Below, one piece after another: positions 31,415 through 38,625 of a DNA stretch of 64,000 nucleotides. A program made the translations under genes and the position numbers. Where the stretch lies: NCBI GenBank assembly GCA_034226945.1, contig CP120455.1, positions 1,178,001-1,242,000 on the forward strand. The letters run 5' to 3'. Position 1 is the first letter of the stretch; each line of letters opens with the position of its first letter. The notes beneath the pieces were generated by a model that saw only the letters and a list, made by a program, of their open reading frames with translations, had not been told where the DNA came from and ran no database searches. This DNA comes from Picochlorum sp. SENEW3. Taxonomy: Eukaryota.

Positions 31415-31651
31415 AGTGAATGTATATATCTAAAAATGTATGGAAAGGTACCTGGAATGGACGAGACAAAGTAGTGCGCCTCTCGAATGGAGGGCCGATC
31501 CGGCCTCATCCTTCTCCCATCAAATCCGCTGTTGAAAGGCCATCTGTAAAATTGCACTGGCCTGTGCGAAGAATGGTCCTCAGGGGACCGCTTGTGCATG
31601 GATCAAAGCATTTTCACGCAATAAAACTAATTATTGGGGATCAACGTAACC

Positions 31652-32653
31652 ATGGGTGATGTATCGAACGTAGAAGAGCTCACTGCTGCTGACTATTACG
31701 CAGATTCCTATGGGCATTTCGGAATTCACGAGGAGATGCTCAAAGATGAAGTTAGAACGAAGACATACATGAACTCCATTCTCAACAATAGTCACATATT
31801 TAAAGATAAAGTTGTTTTGGATGTTGGGTGCGGGACAGGGATCCTGAGCCTGTTTGCATCCAAAGCAGGGGCCAGGCACGTCTATGGCATAGATATGTCT
31901 GCCATCGCGGACTCTGCCAAAGAAATTGTGAAGAACAACGGGTATGAAGATAGAGTGACAATCATCAAGGGGAAAATGGAGGACGTCAGTCTCCCGGAGA
32001 AGGTTGATATTATCATATCAGAGTGGATGGGATACTTTCTGCTGTACGAAAGCATGTTGGACACGGTAATTTACGCCAGAGACAAGTGGCTCAAGCCAGA
32101 TGGACTCGTATTTCCTGATACAGCAGTTTTGTACATGGTCGCCATCGAAGATGGGGAGTACAAGAATGAGAAGATTGATTGGTGGAGCAATGTATATGGT
32201 TTTAATATGGACTGCATCGGAAAAGTTGCCATGATGGAGCCCCTCGTGGACATTGTGGAGCCGAATCAAATTTGCTCACAACCAGCGGTCATGGCCAGAT
32301 TCGATATCAAGACAATGAAGAAGGAGGATGCAGCATTCACGTCGTCTTTCAGGATTCCAGTAACAAGGAAGGACTACGTTCATGCGTTCGTAGCATACTT
32401 TGATGTGATATTCAATGACTGTCACAAGCCTATTGGATTTTCAACGTCGCCGAGAGCAACATCCACGCACTGGAAGCAGACTGTTTTCTACTTGAAGGAC
32501 ACCCTGATCGTCAACCCAGGGGATTCCATCATGGTCACTCTGTCTTCAGGCCCAAATCAGAAGAACCCAAGGGACCTAGACATCAATATCGAATACCAGC
32601 TATCGAATGGAGAGGGATCGTGGCATGGTAAGCAGGAGTACAAGCTTCGATGA
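31652..32653 (+). CDS. PRMT1: Protein arginine N-methyltransferase 1
   Basis: DYYADSY.HFGIHEEMLKD, VLDVGCGTG, ISEWMGY, THWKQT. Confidence 0.95.
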   Translation: MGDVSNVEELTAADYYADSYGHFGIHEEMLKDEVRTKTYMNSILNNSHIFKDKVVLDVGCGTGILSLFASKAGARHVYGIDMSAIADSAKEIVKNNGYEDRVTIIKGKMEDVSLPEKVDIIISEWMGYFLLYESMLDTVIYARDKWLKPDGLVFPDTAVLYMVAIEDGEYKNEKIDWWSNVYGFNMDCIGKVAMMEPLVDIVEPNQICSQPAVMARFDIKTMKKEDAAFTSSFRIPVTRKDYVHAFVAYFDVIFNDCHKPIGFSTSPRATSTHWKQTVFYLKDTLIVNPGDSIMVTLSSGPNQKNPRDLDINIEYQLSNGEGSWHGKQEYKLR

Positions 32654-32659
32654 GGAGCA

Positions 32660-32830
32660 AGCTCTATAATAGTACTTATTCGTACATCATATGCATATAG
32701 CTATGTGACTGTAGTGTTTTCCGTTGTATCACACGTCGGGGATGTCCTCCTCTGCTCGTGTCCGAGGCCTTTGGAAGACTGTTGGTTTCTCCTCGCCGTT
32801 GAGTTCCCACAGGAAAAACTTGGCGAGATT
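32660..32830 (-). ncRNA. Predicted Fanzor omegaRNA (scaffold overlapping the ORF 3' end, guide from flanking DNA)
   Basis: Positional inference from known TnpB/Fanzor loci; the structure was not demonstrated. Confidence 0.35.
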
Positions 32831-35803
32831 GATGGCTGCATTCACGTCTCGTTGCCAGAAAGCACGCTCACATCCATTGTTCATACAACGGCGTACTTTC
32901 CAGCGCTTGTGAAGCCCCACCGCGGGGGGGTCCTCCAATTTGGCATGGCAGGCACAGCAGTACTGGCTACTTCGGAACTCGCCAATCTCGATGAAACAGC
33001 ACCTCTGCCGCAGCAGGTCCTTGAGGGCCCGAAAGCAGACCCTCTGTTTTCCGTGCTTCCCCGAGTTGATCGAGGCGTCCCCAAATACAACGACGGTCTT
33101 GCTCTGAGCCTCCCTGTCCTTCGTCCCGCAGATCCGTTCAACCATGGAGTCCAGCATTCGTTGCGTCCTCGTGTACACAGAGAACCTTTGCCTCCGGAAA
33201 CAGTTCTGGGAATAAAATCCATACACCGTGTTCAGGTGGCTATTGGTCGTTCTGCAGAACGCCAGCATATCCCTTGCTGTTCCGACCTTTCTGGTGGGTG
33301 CCTCCTGTTTCCATGCCCCGATGCCTGGCCTGGCCTGCGACCACGCCCGTTCCAGCGCCTTTCGTTTGAGGATGCCCGCACGCGACTGCATCTCGTGGTT
33401 GGTCAGGCTCATCGTCTCGAACGGGTCGTAGTCCCCGTGTCGCTTGTTCTCCTGGCAGAGCTCCCTCATCTTGCCCTGCTCCAGCCTGATGCCCACGTGG
33501 CCATCGGGCCCTGGATCGAAGACCCATGCGTTGTCGGGCGATGCGGCCAGCAGGTCTTTTGCTCTGTCCAGATTCCCTCGACTGGAGACATTCGAGGACT
33601 GCGGGGTGCCTGGCCCCGTCCTACTCGTTCGTTTTCGCTTCCTCGGCTTTCCTGTCGAAGACCCCGTCGCCTTCTCCGCCGCCCTGGCCTTTATCCTTTC
33701 CTTTTCCTCCTCGTCGGCACGAATTTCGTCGTCCGTCTTCAGACGATAATACTGCATCGACACGTCGACACCGTCCGTGGACAGCTGCCCTCCAAACAGC
33801 CACTGGTGTCCGTTTTGGCACCTTCTGACTTTGATATTGAACAGGGCCGTCCAACAGCACTCTTGATACCGCAACGCAGCCTTTTCCACTTCTTCTCGAG
33901 CATCCAAGTACTCTTGACTGCCATTCAATAACGCGTTCTTCCTGTCTGTCACTTCCTTGCACAGCTTCTTTTCCTTGTCAGACTTCTTGTACCGGTGCCG
34001 CTTTCCAGTCGGGGTCTGCTCAAATTCGAGCTTGCTTTTTTTCTTATTCTCGTCAAGTTCCTGTTTAACCTTCTGTTGCTCGTCGGTCAACCAGTTTTCT
34101 TTGTCCATGTCCACGATTCTCGACTCGATTGACTTCACCCTTTGTCGTGCCTCGCGCAGTGTCTCCTGGGGGCCGTGTATCGCTTCAGCAATGTCACTAC
34201 ACTCCAGTGCCAGGCCCTCTGCGAGGCCGGTGATAGCCACAGTCGGAATGCTGATATGACAGGCCCTCTTCTTTGCCAGGGGGAGGACGGACGGCACCTG
34301 GATTCGCTTTCCCCATGGGGCCTTTGCATCGTTGCCTCTCCTCGGAGTAACGAACAAGAACGACGAGCGGAGCTTGGGCAGAATGACCCTCTCCATATAG
34401 TCGGCAAAATCATTCTTGGTCATGTCGTAGTCGGCCAAGGACGAAGGGAGGCGCAGTTCAGACGAGATGCCATCGATCCAACCCACTTGGTCTTGGCTCA
34501 GGAATTCGGCACCACCCTTCTGACTCTGGTACAGAATCCTCTCCGACAGAAGGCACAAAATTTGTCCCCGATACCTGTCGTTTCGGTCCACGACACGTTG
34601 TCCGTTGTCCCCACTCCGGAATCCCTGGTCCGTGCGGGTGGTGAACAAGTCTGGACCAGAACACTGTCGGAATATGTCCAGCGCATGCTTCACGTGGTGG
34701 ACAAACTCCTTCTTAGTGAGCGATCCTTTCCTCAAATCTCGCTCAATGGCCACCGCCAGTTTTTCTCCTACACACATATTCACTAACTCGATGGCCTGCG
34801 GTGGGCTCCCCGGGCCGGACTGCTCAGAACGGTGGCGGTTGTATTCCATCACCTCACCCGCAACGAAGTGCACGAATTCCATCATCTTGGCATTTTCCTT
34901 TCGGCCTTCCTGATCCGGGAATTTCTCCCGAATAGGGTTGACGATTGTCTCCTGGATGTCTCGGACCTCTTCCTCGGTTAGATTCTTCAATCTGTCGTAC
35001 CCTTCCTTCAGACCACGGAAATCCACGTCCTCCCACACAGCGGCGGCAACGGCAGACACCAAAGAACGAAAGTCATCCGCGTACCGTGCCCCAAAGGTGC
35101 GTGCAAGCCGAACCTTGACAATCTTGCAAAGGTTGTGATACGCATTGTGGTGCAGAATAATGTGCAAATTCTGAGCCTTTGCATCCGCCGCAGCTTTGAG
35201 GCAATGCCGACGCCAGGCCTTGTGACCGTCGACGTCCCATCTCAGAGACTCGCCTGCCTGAGGTAGTGGAGCCTCTTCTGCATACTGTCGGAGCGAGTCG
35301 TACAGGGGTGTCCTGATGTCCTGTTTGAGGCCGTCCCCATACCTGAGGTCTTTGATGGCATCAAAGATGTAGTTCCAAAAATTGTTGTAATCCATCTTCC
35401 CCAGATCAATACCTTCCTCGAAGCATCGGTACACGTGGTAGTGAGCAGCTTGGGTGGCTTCGACGGATATGTGGCCCACCATCGTGGCCGTGTCATACAG
35501 AAGCTCTTTGATTCTGGATGTGCGAGCAATACCCTTCCACTGTCCCTTGTTCTTTCGGTTGTGGTCTTGATACCCGCCCAGAGATCCAGGTTTTATCACC
35601 TTCCTCACTTCTTGCGCGTATTTACTCTGTTTACCCCGTGTTTTTCTATAGAGACCTAACTTTTCAGTCCTGAATTTTGCCTCTTTCCTGTGGTCTCCTG
35701 TAGGTCTGGACCCTGATGGGTCATCACACACCATGTGGGGAGCCTCCCCTCCAGGCGTCGTTGTTGCGACGGTAGGACCTTGATTAACGAACCCTTTTTC
35801 CAT
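32729..35803 (-). CDS. Fz1: Fanzor1 (eukaryotic TnpB/OMEGA-type RNA-guided DNA endonuclease), 1024 aa
   Basis: FGGQLSTDGVDVS (WED), FDPG (RuvC-I D763), VVFGDAS, IGEFRSSQYCCAC (RuvC-II E942 + CxxC), CMNNGC, WQRDVNAAINL (RuvC-III D986); intronless. Confidence 0.9.
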   Translation of the reverse strand: MEKGFVNQGPTVATTTPGGEAPHMVCDDPSGSRPTGDHRKEAKFRTEKLGLYRKTRGKQSKYAQEVRKVIKPGSLGGYQDHNRKNKGQWKGIARTSRIKELLYDTATMVGHISVEATQAAHYHVYRCFEEGIDLGKMDYNNFWNYIFDAIKDLRYGDGLKQDIRTPLYDSLRQYAEEAPLPQAGESLRWDVDGHKAWRRHCLKAAADAKAQNLHIILHHNAYHNLCKIVKVRLARTFGARYADDFRSLVSAVAAAVWEDVDFRGLKEGYDRLKNLTEEEVRDIQETIVNPIREKFPDQEGRKENAKMMEFVHFVAGEVMEYNRHRSEQSGPGSPPQAIELVNMCVGEKLAVAIERDLRKGSLTKKEFVHHVKHALDIFRQCSGPDLFTTRTDQGFRSGDNGQRVVDRNDRYRGQILCLLSERILYQSQKGGAEFLSQDQVGWIDGISSELRLPSSLADYDMTKNDFADYMERVILPKLRSSFLFVTPRRGNDAKAPWGKRIQVPSVLPLAKKRACHISIPTVAITGLAEGLALECSDIAEAIHGPQETLREARQRVKSIESRIVDMDKENWLTDEQQKVKQELDENKKKSKLEFEQTPTGKRHRYKKSDKEKKLCKEVTDRKNALLNGSQEYLDAREEVEKAALRYQECCWTALFNIKVRRCQNGHQWLFGGQLSTDGVDVSMQYYRLKTDDEIRADEEEKERIKARAAEKATGSSTGKPRKRKRTSRTGPGTPQSSNVSSRGNLDRAKDLLAASPDNAWVFDPGPDGHVGIRLEQGKMRELCQENKRHGDYDPFETMSLTNHEMQSRAGILKRKALERAWSQARPGIGAWKQEAPTRKVGTARDMLAFCRTTNSHLNTVYGFYSQNCFRRQRFSVYTRTQRMLDSMVERICGTKDREAQSKTVVVFGDASINSGKHGKQRVCFRALKDLLRQRCCFIEIGEFRSSQYCCACHAKLEDPPAVGLHKRWKVRRCMNNGCERAFWQRDVNAAINLAKFFLWELNGEEKPTVFQRPRTRAEEDIPDV

Positions 35804-36679
35804 CGGTACTACCGTATCTTTATCTCTTCCTCCTCACACACGCGCCACGGTCCTTTTGTCACCTACACAAGGAAACTGGTCGTAACTCCCCTGCTATCAA
35901 ACGTGGTCCTTCATGTCTGTATGGGATTCGTACCTTGTGTGTGCAATAGTTGTCTCTGTAACCGTCCGAACAGGCTCGGCTGATCAGTGCGCGGCCTCCA
36001 CGGGCGTTGATCAGAGCTGCTGGGTCAACGCCCGTGCAAAAAAACTAACAACAACAACAACTGGTATTCAACTCAACAACCAACCGCACGCCCAGCAACA
36101 ACAGCACCGGCGGTCCTTTTATGGAACTGTAATTCGTATATAAACTCTACTACTTTGATAATACGAGACGACGAGACCAAGGGTCGGAAACGCACGACCA
36201 CGCCAGTCGTCGTCCGAGTCTATACTATCGTTACTGTAGTAGCCTACCACAGCGCAGCTATGTTTCTTCGCGAGATGCCGTTGACAAACGTCAGTTTGGG
36301 ACGAGATAATTCTCACAAAAAAAAAAAAACCGAGCCTGACAGGAATTGTCACAGCATATCAACTCCATGCATCGCCATGAGGCCTCATGGCACGAGTCGG
36401 ATGTCATCACTAGGCTTGGGGCAGTGCTATCCGCAACAATTCCACCCTCCCCAATCGAAGTTTTTCGTGTTTCAAGGAAGAACCCTTGCCTAGTTTGAGG
36501 GAGTTCCGCCTCTTTTCCTCTGAGATGAGACTCAAAAGCTGCAATTCTTTCTGCCTCTAGTTCATTGGTGTGTTCTTTGGCACGAAGACCTCCTTTTCCC
36601 TGGATAAAAGTTTTCTTTTAAACTGTTGGTTACACGTGCATGGTAAGAACAAAAAGAAAATCAAACAAGAAAATGAAAT

Positions 36680-37924
36680 CTACTTTGACACTTTTATTGG
36701 CACTCGGGCAGCCATGAGTGCCAGAGGTAAACTTGCCAACTTTCTCCACTTTGGAACATAGGCTCTCTTTGTGAAATTATTGTATTCGTTGGCTTCTATA
36801 CCATCCAGAATTTGGCGATACAATATCAGGGCTGACCATACTGGCCACCGAGCATCAGCATCGAGCAGGTTCACTCCTGCCTCAGCCTCCGCAAAGTAAT
36901 CTCGAGCTCTCTGGATCTGGAACTGCATGAATGCACGCCATCTATCGTCTATCTTCCCAGTTGTTGGTGCAAACATGCCACGCAATACTTCGTCCCCTGA
37001 GATGCCAAACTTGTCCAGTTCATCCAGAGGGAGATACACTCTAGACCTGGTCATGGCATCCTCTCCAACATCTCGAAGAATATTTGTCAGCTGGTTTGCT
37101 GTCCCTAACGCTAATGCCGCCTTATAAACTGGCTCTAATGGTCCCTTGTACGTAGGATCGACTCCCATGACTGGTGTGCTCATCAAGGCCACAGTTCCTG
37201 CCACGCGATAGCAATATTCGTATAATTCATCATAGTTTTCGTATCTGTTCTTGTATAGATCCATTCTCATTCCTCCGATCATATCACGGAAAGGCTGGAT
37301 ATCCACGGGGAACTTGGTCAATGTGTCCGTAAGTGTGGCATCTAGCGAGTCATATGGGCGCCCATCGAACAGGGCTTCCAGCCTCTCCTCCCACCTGTCC
37401 AGTGCTGCGGGGGTGATTCTCGCGGAATTTGGCCCATCGACCAATTCGTCTGTTCTTCTGCACCAGACGTAGATCGCCCAAATAGCACGCGCTTTCTCTG
37501 GTGTCATGAGTTGTGTTCCTAGGTAAAATGTCTTTGCATATTCAGAGGTTACCTCTCCTGACCTCAAGTAGGCATCCTCCAACATCTGCCCCGACCATTT
37601 ATGTGAAACTGGCAATCCATTTGGAAAAGCTTTGTGCAGCTCGATCTGAGACCTCGTGGCTGCAGCCTCAATTTCATGCCCAGACATTGGTTGTGTCACT
37701 GGAACTTTCCCACTGCTTGCAGGTGACGAAGGTGTGCTCGACGATACTTTGGCTGCTGCTGCTGATGTCTTGCGACTTTGGGAATCTTTCGAGCCACTCC
37801 CACCCACCGATGCAGATGCGCATTGGACTCTCCTTCCCACAAGGGCACACGACCTGCTGGTAAAGCCGGGTCTACAGTCTAGAGCCCCGTGCATAGACAT
37901 CGATATCGGCAATGCATGTGCCAT
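36680..37924 (-). CDS. PSY: Phytoene synthase
   Basis: [45 protein letters not shown]; transit peptide. Confidence 0.95.
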
Positions 37925-38334
37925 CCTCCTATTAAATAGTCTCTAGACGCAGATGGATTGTGCCAAATCCCGTTTCAGGACAGAAATCCAGAACCTGTTA
38001 TCCTGTTCTGACGGACTCACTCCTTGAGGCTTCGACGCGTATCTTCTGCAAAACGACATGAGACTGGTGAGTTGACGCACATTGTATTTCACATAGATGA
38101 AATGATATTTCTAAGAGGGTGCATCGGACAATGGGCAAAGACGAGCCAGGTACGTCACCGTTGGGGGCGGTGCTTTTTTTGCAAACGTTACTCGAGTGCA
38201 CGAGGCAGGCCTCTTTTACATACCTAATGATACCTCTCAAATATGAAATGAAAATAAAACCTCGATAATTGGTTCTAAGCCAACGCCATCGATCAATCAA
38301 TTCTCAAGTCACTGGATTGGTCAATCAAGCAAGT

Positions 38335-38625
38335 AGACTGGTTTGCATCCACCACCTCTGGGAATGAGGCATTTTCATCCCTTCAAAGGGTCCCTTTGAT
38401 TTTTCTTGTTTTGCTTCTGTCATTGCATTTTGACCATGCACTTGTAATATAAAGAAGTAGCAGTATTTTTCGACTGAGCGAGGCCTCTCTTTCTTCTCAA
38501 GAAGCCTCTGCCGCCACAATAGAGGTGTCTCTCTATGGTAGTAGAGCCACCTCCAATGCAGACTGGTTTGCATCCACCACCTCTGGGAATGAGGCATTAT
38601 TATCCCTTCAAAGGGTCCCTTTGAT
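38335..38625. repeat. 66-bp direct repeat (38335-38400 and 38560-38625) around a 159-bp spacer
   Basis: AGACTGGTTTGCATCCACCACCTCTGGGAATGAGGCATT..ATCCCTTCAAAGGGTCCCTTTGAT occurs twice with 2 mismatches. Confidence 0.9.

Follow-up and report, generated by a model that had tools for sequence, protein, structure and literature searches.

We describe here a gene of the Fanzor1 family, that is, of the eukaryotic descendants of the transposon nuclease TnpB, located in a stretch of 64,000 nucleotides of the Picochlorum sp. SENEW3 genome (contig CP120455.1, positions 1,178,001 to 1,242,000; below, the window, whose own numbering is used throughout). An intronless open reading frame (ORF) of 1024 codons and a stop codon, at 32729..35803 on the reverse strand, almost certainly encodes a member of this family, according to its motifs and to profile and structure matches, and the explanation that best accounts for all the data is, very probably, a full-length Fanzor1 protein residing on a repeated mobile element. 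To our knowledge, Fanzors are the only RNA-guided DNA nucleases known from eukaryotes; they attract attention as tools for genome editing and because what they do in the biology of transposons is unclear. Two features appear to be new, namely, a distinct long-form Fanzor1 clade with insertions in the REC lobe, as suggested by sequence comparison, and an apparently young repeated element that is wedged between two host genes and has an unusually short 3′ tail.

Fanzor1 ORF and Catalytic Residues

The ORF (P0001 in our ORF list) is the longest ATG-initiated ORF of the window and stays open under translation tables 11 and 1, with neither stops nor frameshifts. An earlier reading of this DNA, made from the sequence alone (below, the sequence-only reading), had claimed an intronless ORF of 1024 amino acids with a series of motifs and a complete catalytic triad. 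All of this is confirmed, each quoted motif being found at the residues it had given, and D763, E942, and D986 all being present. From the N- to the C-terminus, the motifs are W..LFNI (W651, with LFNI at residues 654–657), FGGQLSTDGVDVS (residues 670–682), FDPG of RuvC-I (residues 762–765, 33509..33520), VVFGDAS (residues 905–911, 33071..33091), GEFRSSQYCCAC (residues 941–952, including E942), CMNNGC (residues 973–978), and RDVNAAIN of RuvC-III (residues 985–992, 32828..32851); here and below, coordinates of protein features refer to the reverse strand. The first two belong to the W..LF.I ... TDGV.VS block (residues 651–682, 33758..33853), which is conserved in the alignment of relatives described below, contributes β-strands of the WED domain (strands 667–688 of the structural model), and has aligned counterparts in SpuFz1 and GtFz1.

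In SpuFz1, metal is coordinated by D383, E541, and D606, together with N385 (Saito 2023, PMC10432273). In the numbering of chain 8gkh_P, which according to the alignment is shifted by 394, D383, E541, and D606 are residues 777, 935, and 1000; they align to the profile columns DPG, DE.xTS, and wnRD, that is, to D763 (codon 33515–33517), E942 (32978–32980), and D986 (32846–32848), respectively. The VVFGDAS strand occupies the canonical RuvC-II position, with Gly908 (33080–33082) standing for the usual Glu, and the relocated Glu942 is found just ahead of the C4 zinc finger formed by C949, C952, C973, and C978 (32870..32983).

It has been previously reported that Fanzors carry Pro or Gly at the place of the canonical RuvC-II Glu, and that an alternative Glu about 45 residues away is essential for cleavage (Jiang 2023, PMC10530073); similarly, "G500 and E536" have been described as extremely conserved in Fanzor1 (Bao & Jurka 2013, PMC3627910). 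In the present protein, 34 residues separate G908 from E942, each of which is conserved in at least 90% of the aligned sequences; thus, the rearranged RuvC site is present. The relocated Glu is characteristic of all Fanzors and of a TnpB subset, "TnpB2" (Jiang 2023, PMC10530073), and since it is common to Fanzor2 and TnpB2, the rearranged site does not discriminate Fanzor1. The sequence-only reading, which had considered a Glu next to the zinc finger to be typical of Fanzor1, was therefore right about the order of the motifs, although the relocated Glu is not specific to Fanzor1.

The arrangement of residues also follows the TnpB/Fanzor signature D-X(125,275)-[TS][TS]-X-X-C4-X(5,50)-RD (Bao & Jurka 2013, PMC3627910): D763 is separated by 181 residues from S945-S946-Q-Y-C949..C952...C973..C978, and six further residues lead to R985-D986. 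The basic stretch KPRKRKR (residues 719–725, 33629..33649), situated in a loop that is disordered in the model, is a possible nuclear localisation signal; such signals have been predicted in about 60% of Fanzors (Jiang 2023, PMC10530073).

An ORF of 408 amino acids with a GTG start (32705–33931, forward strand) runs antisense to the Fanzor1 ORF, and is taken as a by-product of the composition of the sense frame.

Family Assignment by Profile Comparison

A word-indexed search yielded three relatives, namely, a hypothetical protein of Picochlorum sp. BPE23 (53% identity, 759 amino acids) and two metagenomic proteins of 948 and 949 amino acids (31–32% identity); together with the query, they form a four-sequence profile, A1. 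An exhaustive profile search of the library retrieved 1269 proteins at E ≤ 1e-3, including 291 at E ≤ 1e-10 and 21 at E ≤ 1e-30, the matches being mostly 600–800 amino acids long and aligned to profile positions ~610–970. The Pfam domain PF07282 (Cas12f1-like TNB/OrfB zinc ribbon) was found at E ≤ 0.01 in all 38 relatives that were scanned, 23 of them scoring above the gathering score. The query and 66 relatives were combined in a 67-sequence alignment, A2 (660 profile positions), where D763, G678, G765, S946, C973, and R985 are invariant, and W651, F655, T676, G908, E942, C949, C952, C978, D986, and N988 are conserved in at least 90% of sequences.

The A2 profile matches SpuFz1 with E 2.7e-67 over positions 14–630 of 660, GtFz1 with 3.8e-56, and PpFz1 with 2.2e-54, compared to 1.6e-9 for the mimivirus Fanzor2 and 3e-3 for ISDra2 TnpB; the matches to the latter two, as well as to TranC and Cas12f, are limited to the zinc-ribbon/RuvC-III end. 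As A2 includes the query, the comparison was repeated as an independent chain via A1 and A4, an alignment of 31 typical relatives (600–790 amino acids) from which the query's clade was excluded. The hhalign comparison of A1 with A4 gave probability 100 and E 4.9e-63 over 600 columns (query 53–969, template 38–647 of 671), and A4, without the clade, matched SpuFz1 with 9.5e-56, GtFz1 with 5.2e-45, and PpFz1 with 2e-43.

Predicted Structure and Insertions in the REC Lobe

The AlphaFold2 model built with the A2 alignment has a mean predicted local distance difference test score (pLDDT) of 80.6 and a predicted template modelling score (pTM) of 0.77, with disorder at residues 1–53, 331–344, 386–409, 483–498, and 717–739. 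According to the model and the hhalign comparison, the protein consists of an N-terminal β part, a helical REC lobe, the WED strands, and a split RuvC domain with the C4 zinc finger. The seven top matches of a Foldseek search against the PDB are all Fanzor1 structures (SpuFz, PpFz, and GtFz; E from 2.1e-12 to 8.3e-10), followed by Cas12h1 with E 5.9e-4. VIA-align superimposed the model on SpuFz with Z 22.4 and a root-mean-square deviation of 3.8 over 535 residues (model 64–1013, chain 18–633), and yielded Z 21.5 for PpFz and 19.9 for GtFz, the seven Fanzor1 entries spanning Z 19.5–22.4; the non-Fanzor1 structures Cas12p, ISDra2 TnpB, and mimivirus Fanzor2 reached 11.4, 10.6, and 9.6, respectively. 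Thus, the predicted fold favours Fanzor1 over Fanzor2, TnpB, and Cas12.

These data agree with the Fanzor1 call made in the sequence-only reading: residues ~740–1000 match the RuvC domain of TnpB and Fanzor proteins both by profile and by structure, with the solved Fanzor1 proteins matching best and over the whole length, and the comparison of an AlphaFold model with SpuFz1, which that reading had proposed, gave the strongest structural match of all (Z 22.4). We also considered bacterial contamination and a Cas12 or TnpB gene, and rejected both, because the flanks are eukaryotic and the match to Fanzor1 is far better.

The all-helical REC lobe of the model (residues 96–654, 33842..35518) contains two insertions that remain unmatched in the hhalign comparison with relatives of 600–790 amino acids, one at approximately residues 330–490 (34334–34816) and the other, a helical hairpin, at approximately residues 545–640 (33884–34171). 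These two insertions account for most of the extra length; an N-terminal extension relative to typical relatives is present as well. When folded alone, residues 240–660 gave pLDDT 69 and pTM 0.36, and a wide structural search with the REC insertion returned matches (Z up to 8.0) that were all generic helical hairpins or coiled coils, so that we assign no fold to the insertions and make no claim of a new one.

The Long-Form Clade

In a FastTree phylogeny of 74 rows, which is unrooted and comprises relatives without named reference sequences, the query pairs with a metagenomic protein, P0159 (989 amino acids, 57% identity). Both belong to a seven-member clade, all of whose members are 948–1024 amino acids long, with an SH-like (Shimodaira–Hasegawa-like) support of 100 and a stem length of 1.01; the rows next to this clade have 808–851 amino acids. 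Since every member of the clade has at least 948 amino acids, the large size is a lineage trait. A second long pair (1235 and 1341 amino acids) is found elsewhere in the tree and is unrelated to the query's clade.

The protein had been called unusually large, and this is true in comparison with typical Fanzors, which are about 600 amino acids long (Jiang 2023, PMC10530073), but only in this relative sense, as six of the best 150 library matches have at least 900 amino acids (948, 957, 963, 1003, 1235, and 1341).

The Carrier Element

The ORF is part of a repeated element of ~3.9–4.0 kb (~32663..36631, reverse strand), whose extent is seen from contig ends and from exits of contigs into other flanks. 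To delimit it, contigs of four public runs (X1, X2, X12, and X17) were placed on 31600–37950; such contigs reveal which sequences are present and how they are joined, whereas RNA ends and the true copy number are beyond their reach. The element comprises a 5′ non-coding part of about 800 nt (35804..36631), which might hold a promoter or leader and for which deletion variants exist in other copies, the ORF, and a 3′ tail of 45–65 nt. The boundary at the 3′ side of the gene is between 32663 and 32684, and that at the 5′ side is at ~36612–36631, with break points of some other copies near 36393–36414. By-eye comparison of the 30-letter loose ends places the right end probably near 32663–32665, i.e., 10–12 nt from the stop codon of the adjacent PRMT gene; by eye, the loose ends can be aligned with the window, with indels, for ~20 nt past 32684. 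A T/A homopolymer in the 5′ non-coding part (36316–36330) differs in length between runs.

Repetition is seen in run X1, whose contigs total 13.3 million letters. Its flank contigs, one of them 34,473 nt long, agree with the window with zero differences and end at 32712 on one side and at 36583 (or 36601) on the other, a single k-mer into the repeat. The interior of the element is split among numerous short variant contigs. In total, there are 87 records, with a likeness of at least 99% in 36 of them, of 95–99% in 34, and of 90–95% in 17; the longer interior contigs have 0–19 differences. In other runs, contigs leave the element for unrelated sequence at 32680–32684 (X2, X12, and X17) and at 36631 (X2). 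Deletion joints were observed between 32881 and 33171 and between 36188 and 36345, each in two runs, and between 35860 and 35932. Within the element, the summed contig depth reaches about 2–10 times the level of the flanks, peaking at 32660–33295, at the 3′ end of the gene; since summed depth is not a copy number, it can be taken only as a hint of over-representation of this end. No empty-site joint spanning the whole element is listed in the four runs, which is no proof that none exists.

Taken together, the carrier is, with good confidence, a repeated mobile element. The sequence-only reading had suggested that the gene may be active or recently inserted. This is in line with the observed copies, which are 1–4% apart and have different flanks; for activity, the odds are about even (see below).

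Putative Guide RNA and Mobility

By analogy with characterized systems, a candidate omegaRNA region can be proposed at 32663..32900 (reverse strand), covering the last ~57 codons and the 3′ tail of ~45–65 nt. It ends in a predicted terminal hairpin (~32662–32690), and no part of the element is repeated more often than this end. The omegaRNA of SpuFz1 consists of a scaffold of ~75 nt downstream of the ORF and a 14–15-nt guide derived from the flank, and the omegaRNA of GtFz1 overlaps the last 17 codons (Saito 2023, PMC10432273). In the present element, the stop codon is followed by only ~45–65 nt, so that a scaffold could be accommodated only by extending substantially into the coding end, much further than in the case of SpuFz1, whose scaffold lies downstream.

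If the analogy holds, the 3′ end of the element would be transcribed into a guide RNA, to be bound by the Fanzor protein that the element encodes. The scaffold of this RNA would extend into the final codons, an arrangement known from TnpB and GtFz1, and the guide would be read from the flank just past the right end of the element. Holding Mg2+ in its RuvC site, the protein would then cut guide-matching DNA beside a short adjacent motif, and this cleavage might help the element to persist or spread.

How the element moves may be suggested by the green alga Chlamydomonas, where the Fanzor1 carriers CRe-1/2/3 have been described as non-autonomous Helitron2 elements, often truncated at the 5′ end and carrying internal deletions, with the 3′ end nearly always intact; this pattern of copies was interpreted as one-ended transposition of the rolling-circle type (Bao & Jurka 2013, PMC3627910), and the association of Fanzor1 with Helitron2 has been confirmed (Jiang 2023, PMC10530073). 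Since the 3′-biased and 5′-variable copies observed here resemble those of CRe-1/2/3, one-ended, Helitron2-like rolling-circle movement is our leading, though tentative, idea, and we do not file the element as Helitron2. Of the hallmarks of Helitron2, namely, short asymmetric terminal inverted repeats, a hairpin at either end, and a master element encoding RepHel, a hairpin is predicted here at the 3′ terminus. An arrangement described as "Fanzor gene + right-end guide only" is known from an endogenous giant virus of Chlamydomonas (10.1101/2024.09.03.611062). A 10-nt direct match between 32777–32786 and 36621–36630, one side of which is inside the ORF, was taken as chance.

Activity and Alternative Explanations

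A number of observations weigh against the interpretation given above. At the level of the family, the query itself matches PF07282 at residues 934–993 with E 8.5e-5 and 23.1 bits, compared to a gathering score of 26.3; a scan of the ORF against NCBIfam returned nothing relevant; the query alone, compared with PDB sequences, hits GtFz1 at a non-significant E of 5.9, and the A1 profile does so at E 5.1, yet the latter match remains colinear both in the W.F..TDGV.S block and in the zinc finger/RuvC-III region. At the level of the element, neither terminal inverted repeats nor a target-site duplication were found at its ends (in a local alignment of the ends, the best inverted score, 18, falls inside the ORF), no second copy was found in the 64-kb window, and a Pfam scan of the 26 other window ORFs of at least 200 amino acids revealed no transposase, RepHel, reverse transcriptase, or viral protein. 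As regards the guide RNA, the last 237 nt have a folding z-score of −3.18, which is not outstanding, as a scan of 70 windows per strand gives −3.28 at 35080–35239 and −2.66 at 32740–32899, and an Rfam search of 32300–37000 produced no match at E ≤ 1. As regards the protein, the two BPE23 relatives (P0002, 759 amino acids, and P0154, 740 amino acids; on two contigs of ~1.1 Mb) both end just past RuvC-I; CrFNuc, a green-algal Fanzor1 with intact motifs, bound RNA and showed no cleavage in vitro (Jiang 2023, PMC10530073); and among the differences between copies, 27 of which fall in the ORF (from 40 of 175 differences), 8 are synonymous and 19 are non-synonymous, the neutral expectation for the synonymous share being ~0.28.

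Given this, we regard the chances that the present copy encodes an active RNA-guided nuclease as evenly balanced, mainly by analogy with characterized Fanzors. The observations on the guide RNA and on the protein listed above, together with the lack of a transposase nearby in the window, are what one would expect of an intact-looking but dead copy, i.e., a decaying non-autonomous passenger whose ORF is young enough to be still free of stop codons, but which has no guide RNA or no longer cleaves. With a synonymous share near the neutral value, the recent copies show no sign of purifying selection and drift in the manner of transposon copies, and some of the other copies have 3-nt insertions at 32850–32851 (in one run, seen as 1 nt and 2 nt), within the codons of the RuvC-III motif RDVNAAIN. 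On the other hand, the window copy has kept every catalytic and zinc-binding residue, the copies are only a few per cent apart, a relative is known as a complete-ORF transcript from a transcriptome collection, and the same residues are retained across subfamilies with 31–57% identity, which calls for long-term selection on the protein. We thus consider a dead copy to be a possibility to be taken seriously, although a doubtful one.

As to transcription, the only run on record as RNA is X17, an oligo-dT metatranscriptome, which has contigs at 32684–32846 and 32998–33195; being ~90–95% alike and leaving into another flank, they represent a related copy, and DNA carry-over is possible. For runs X2 and X12, an RNA origin is no more than a guess, and parts left uncovered in X12 and X17 prove nothing.

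Another explanation, that of a domesticated host gene which has acquired a cellular function at a fixed locus and is no longer mobile, would agree with a long intact ORF among housekeeping genes, with its being the sole copy within the window, and with the presence of the PRMT-side junction in contigs of three runs (X1, X2, and X12). It is very improbable, since the same sequence enters different flanks within the same runs, the assembly breaks at the borders of the element, deletion derivatives exist, the composition is unlike that of the neighbours, and BPE23 has two separate loci. The remaining alternative concerns the origin of the element and is compatible with a Fanzor1 protein on a repeated mobile element: the element could have arrived recently with an integrated or infecting nucleocytovirus and spread afterwards. 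Its GC content, both overall and at third codon positions (GC3), is above that of the host neighbours; Fanzor1 elements are common to giant endogenous viruses and green-algal hosts (10.1101/2024.09.03.611062), spread by viruses has been proposed (Bao & Jurka, PMC3627910), and lateral transfer has been presumed for green-algal Fanzors (Auxenochlorella preprint, PMC12633428). However, no viral genes are seen among the window ORFs, the closest named relatives are algal, and none of 19 matches of the clade motif patterns in IMG/VR was confirmed, which is a weak test with only two short N-terminal motifs; hence, we consider this origin unlikely.

Comparison With Known Systems and Implications

The query shares with the solved Fanzor1 proteins SpuFz1, GtFz1, and PpFz1 (PDB 8GKH, 9CER, and 9CF0) the fold over the whole length (516–546 residues aligned), the catalytic D/E/D residues, the position of the Glu ahead of the C4 finger, and the W..F/TDGV.S block, whereas the identity over the structural alignment is ~15%, and the query exceeds SpuFz1 and GtFz1 by ~300–400 amino acids (the REC insertions and the N-terminal extension). 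The Spu-1 elements, similarly to the element described here, carry a single ORF on a repeated unit without a transposase of their own (Saito 2023, PMC10432273), but they have 30-nt inverted repeats, of which none were found at the present ends.

CRe-1/2/3 (CrFNuc, Fanzor1c) resemble the present system in the green-algal host, and, as non-autonomous Fanzor1 carriers, in the 5′ truncation, internal deletions, and 3′ over-representation that are seen in our contigs. They differ in that their Chlamydomonas genes have 5–10 exons (Bao & Jurka 2013, PMC3627910), in contrast to the intronless ORF in Picochlorum, and in the asymmetric terminal inverted repeats of Helitron2, which local alignment did not reveal at the query ends.

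ISDra2 TnpB and Cas12f have in common with the query the RuvC and zinc-ribbon core (Z 10.6 for 8H1J and 9.5–10.2 for AsCas12f), and, as in TnpB, the guide RNA of the query would be expected to extend into the 3′ part of the coding sequence; the query differs in Gly908 at RuvC-II, the relocated Glu, the far larger REC lobe, and the eukaryotic host and flanks. The mimivirus Fanzor2 protein ApmFz2 (9B0L) has the same relocated Glu and the same RuvC/zinc-ribbon core, but its profile match is limited to the C-terminal ~70 positions, and the structural match (Z 9.6 over model residues 753–1003) does not extend outside the RuvC core.

In its boldest form, our interpretation would be that this is the first recognised Fanzor1 lineage of Cas12 size (948–1024 amino acids), occurring in marine or halotolerant picoalgae and in uncultured eukaryotes, where ~250 additional amino acids of REC helices alter the way the guide–target duplex is held, the guide RNA is mostly contained within the 3′ coding sequence, similarly to TnpB, and the element is now spreading by a one-ended mechanism of the rolling-circle type in a repeat-poor genome of ~13 Mb. 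As a whole, this chain is improbable; if true, it would provide a natural system for studying a eukaryotic RNA-guided nuclease in transposon spread, as well as a distinct genome-editing scaffold. Very small gene-dense genomes are usually poor in transposons, and, if the whole genome were examined, all copies could be catalogued together with their flanks and any empty sites, which would make it possible to ask whether the guide matches the element's own insertion sites. The finding itself leaves the knowledge of the Fanzor family unchanged.

Relatives in Sequence Databases

The exact protein is not contained in a collection of 15 billion sequences, though its phytoene synthase neighbour is; the closest protein found is the full-length metagenomic P0159 with 57% identity. 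Probably, the Fanzor1 ORF was never called, or it was repeat-masked, in the source annotation. Within the genus, relatives comprise the two BPE23 loci, a fragment from P. renovo, and a 772-amino-acid MMETSP transcript marked as "complete"; outside it, one Trebouxia protein is among the closest named relatives, all of which are algal. Of 20 proteins for which an organism name was looked up, it was only those from Picochlorum that had one. The 989-amino-acid metagenomic member and the 772-amino-acid transcript, which belong to the same 90% cluster, reach the C-terminus; in BPE23, either the copies themselves are broken or their gene models are wrong.

Patterns derived from A1, which were restricted to two short motifs of the N-terminal or RuvC-I part, matched 195 times in the metagenome collection, with none of the matches confirmed. 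A 21-nt exact match to a RuvC-III-region pattern at a metagenome locus (L001) was attributed to chance, there being no further blastn or tblastn similarity to the window.

Fanzor1 genes have been described before from several green algae (PMC12633428; PMC3627910), and the Fanzor passages of the Auxenochlorella preprint deal with Auxenochlorella, C. reinhardtii, and Chloropicon (PMC12633428). Neither the main text of Jiang 2023 (PMC10530073) nor that of the Replitron paper (PMC10288648) mentions Picochlorum; the Fanzor supplements of the Saito and Jiang papers may list it.

Genomic Locus and Composition

The element is located between two host genes, one encoding a PRMT-type arginine methyltransferase (31652..32653, forward strand), whose stop codon is 10–30 nt from the element end, and the other encoding phytoene synthase (36680..37924, reverse strand), whose stop codon is ~50–70 nt from the 5′ end of the element. 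The Fanzor1 ORF is thus downstream of the phytoene synthase gene and converges on the PRMT gene, and without the element these convergent host genes would be roughly 60–100 nt apart.

The window contains 34 ATG-initiated ORFs of at least 200 amino acids within 64 kb. Eukaryotic housekeeping Pfam domains, e.g., those of kinesin, SF1, threonyl-tRNA synthetase, dyskerin, aldolase, and presenilin, are present in 19 of the 26 other window ORFs of this size, and those of the listed phytoene synthase relatives that have organism names are all from green algae. The description of the source as a compact green algal genome, given in the sequence-only reading, is therefore fair, considering the green-algal flanks, the housekeeping domains, and the ORF density.

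The composition of the element deviates from that of its surroundings: its GC content is 0.531, compared to 0.485 in the rest of the window, and GC3 of the Fanzor1 ORF is 0.66, compared to 0.49 and 0.57 in the neighbouring genes. Likewise, no other 2-kb bins of the window reach the GC content (0.526 and 0.531) or the negative AT skew (−0.113 and −0.172) of the two that cover the element (32000–36000).

An imperfect inverted repeat of ~36 nt brackets the phytoene synthase gene (36630–36665 and 38395–38447; the pairs are 85% and 78% complementary), and may be a shared motif of untranslated regions or terminators, or else the ends of a small repeat.

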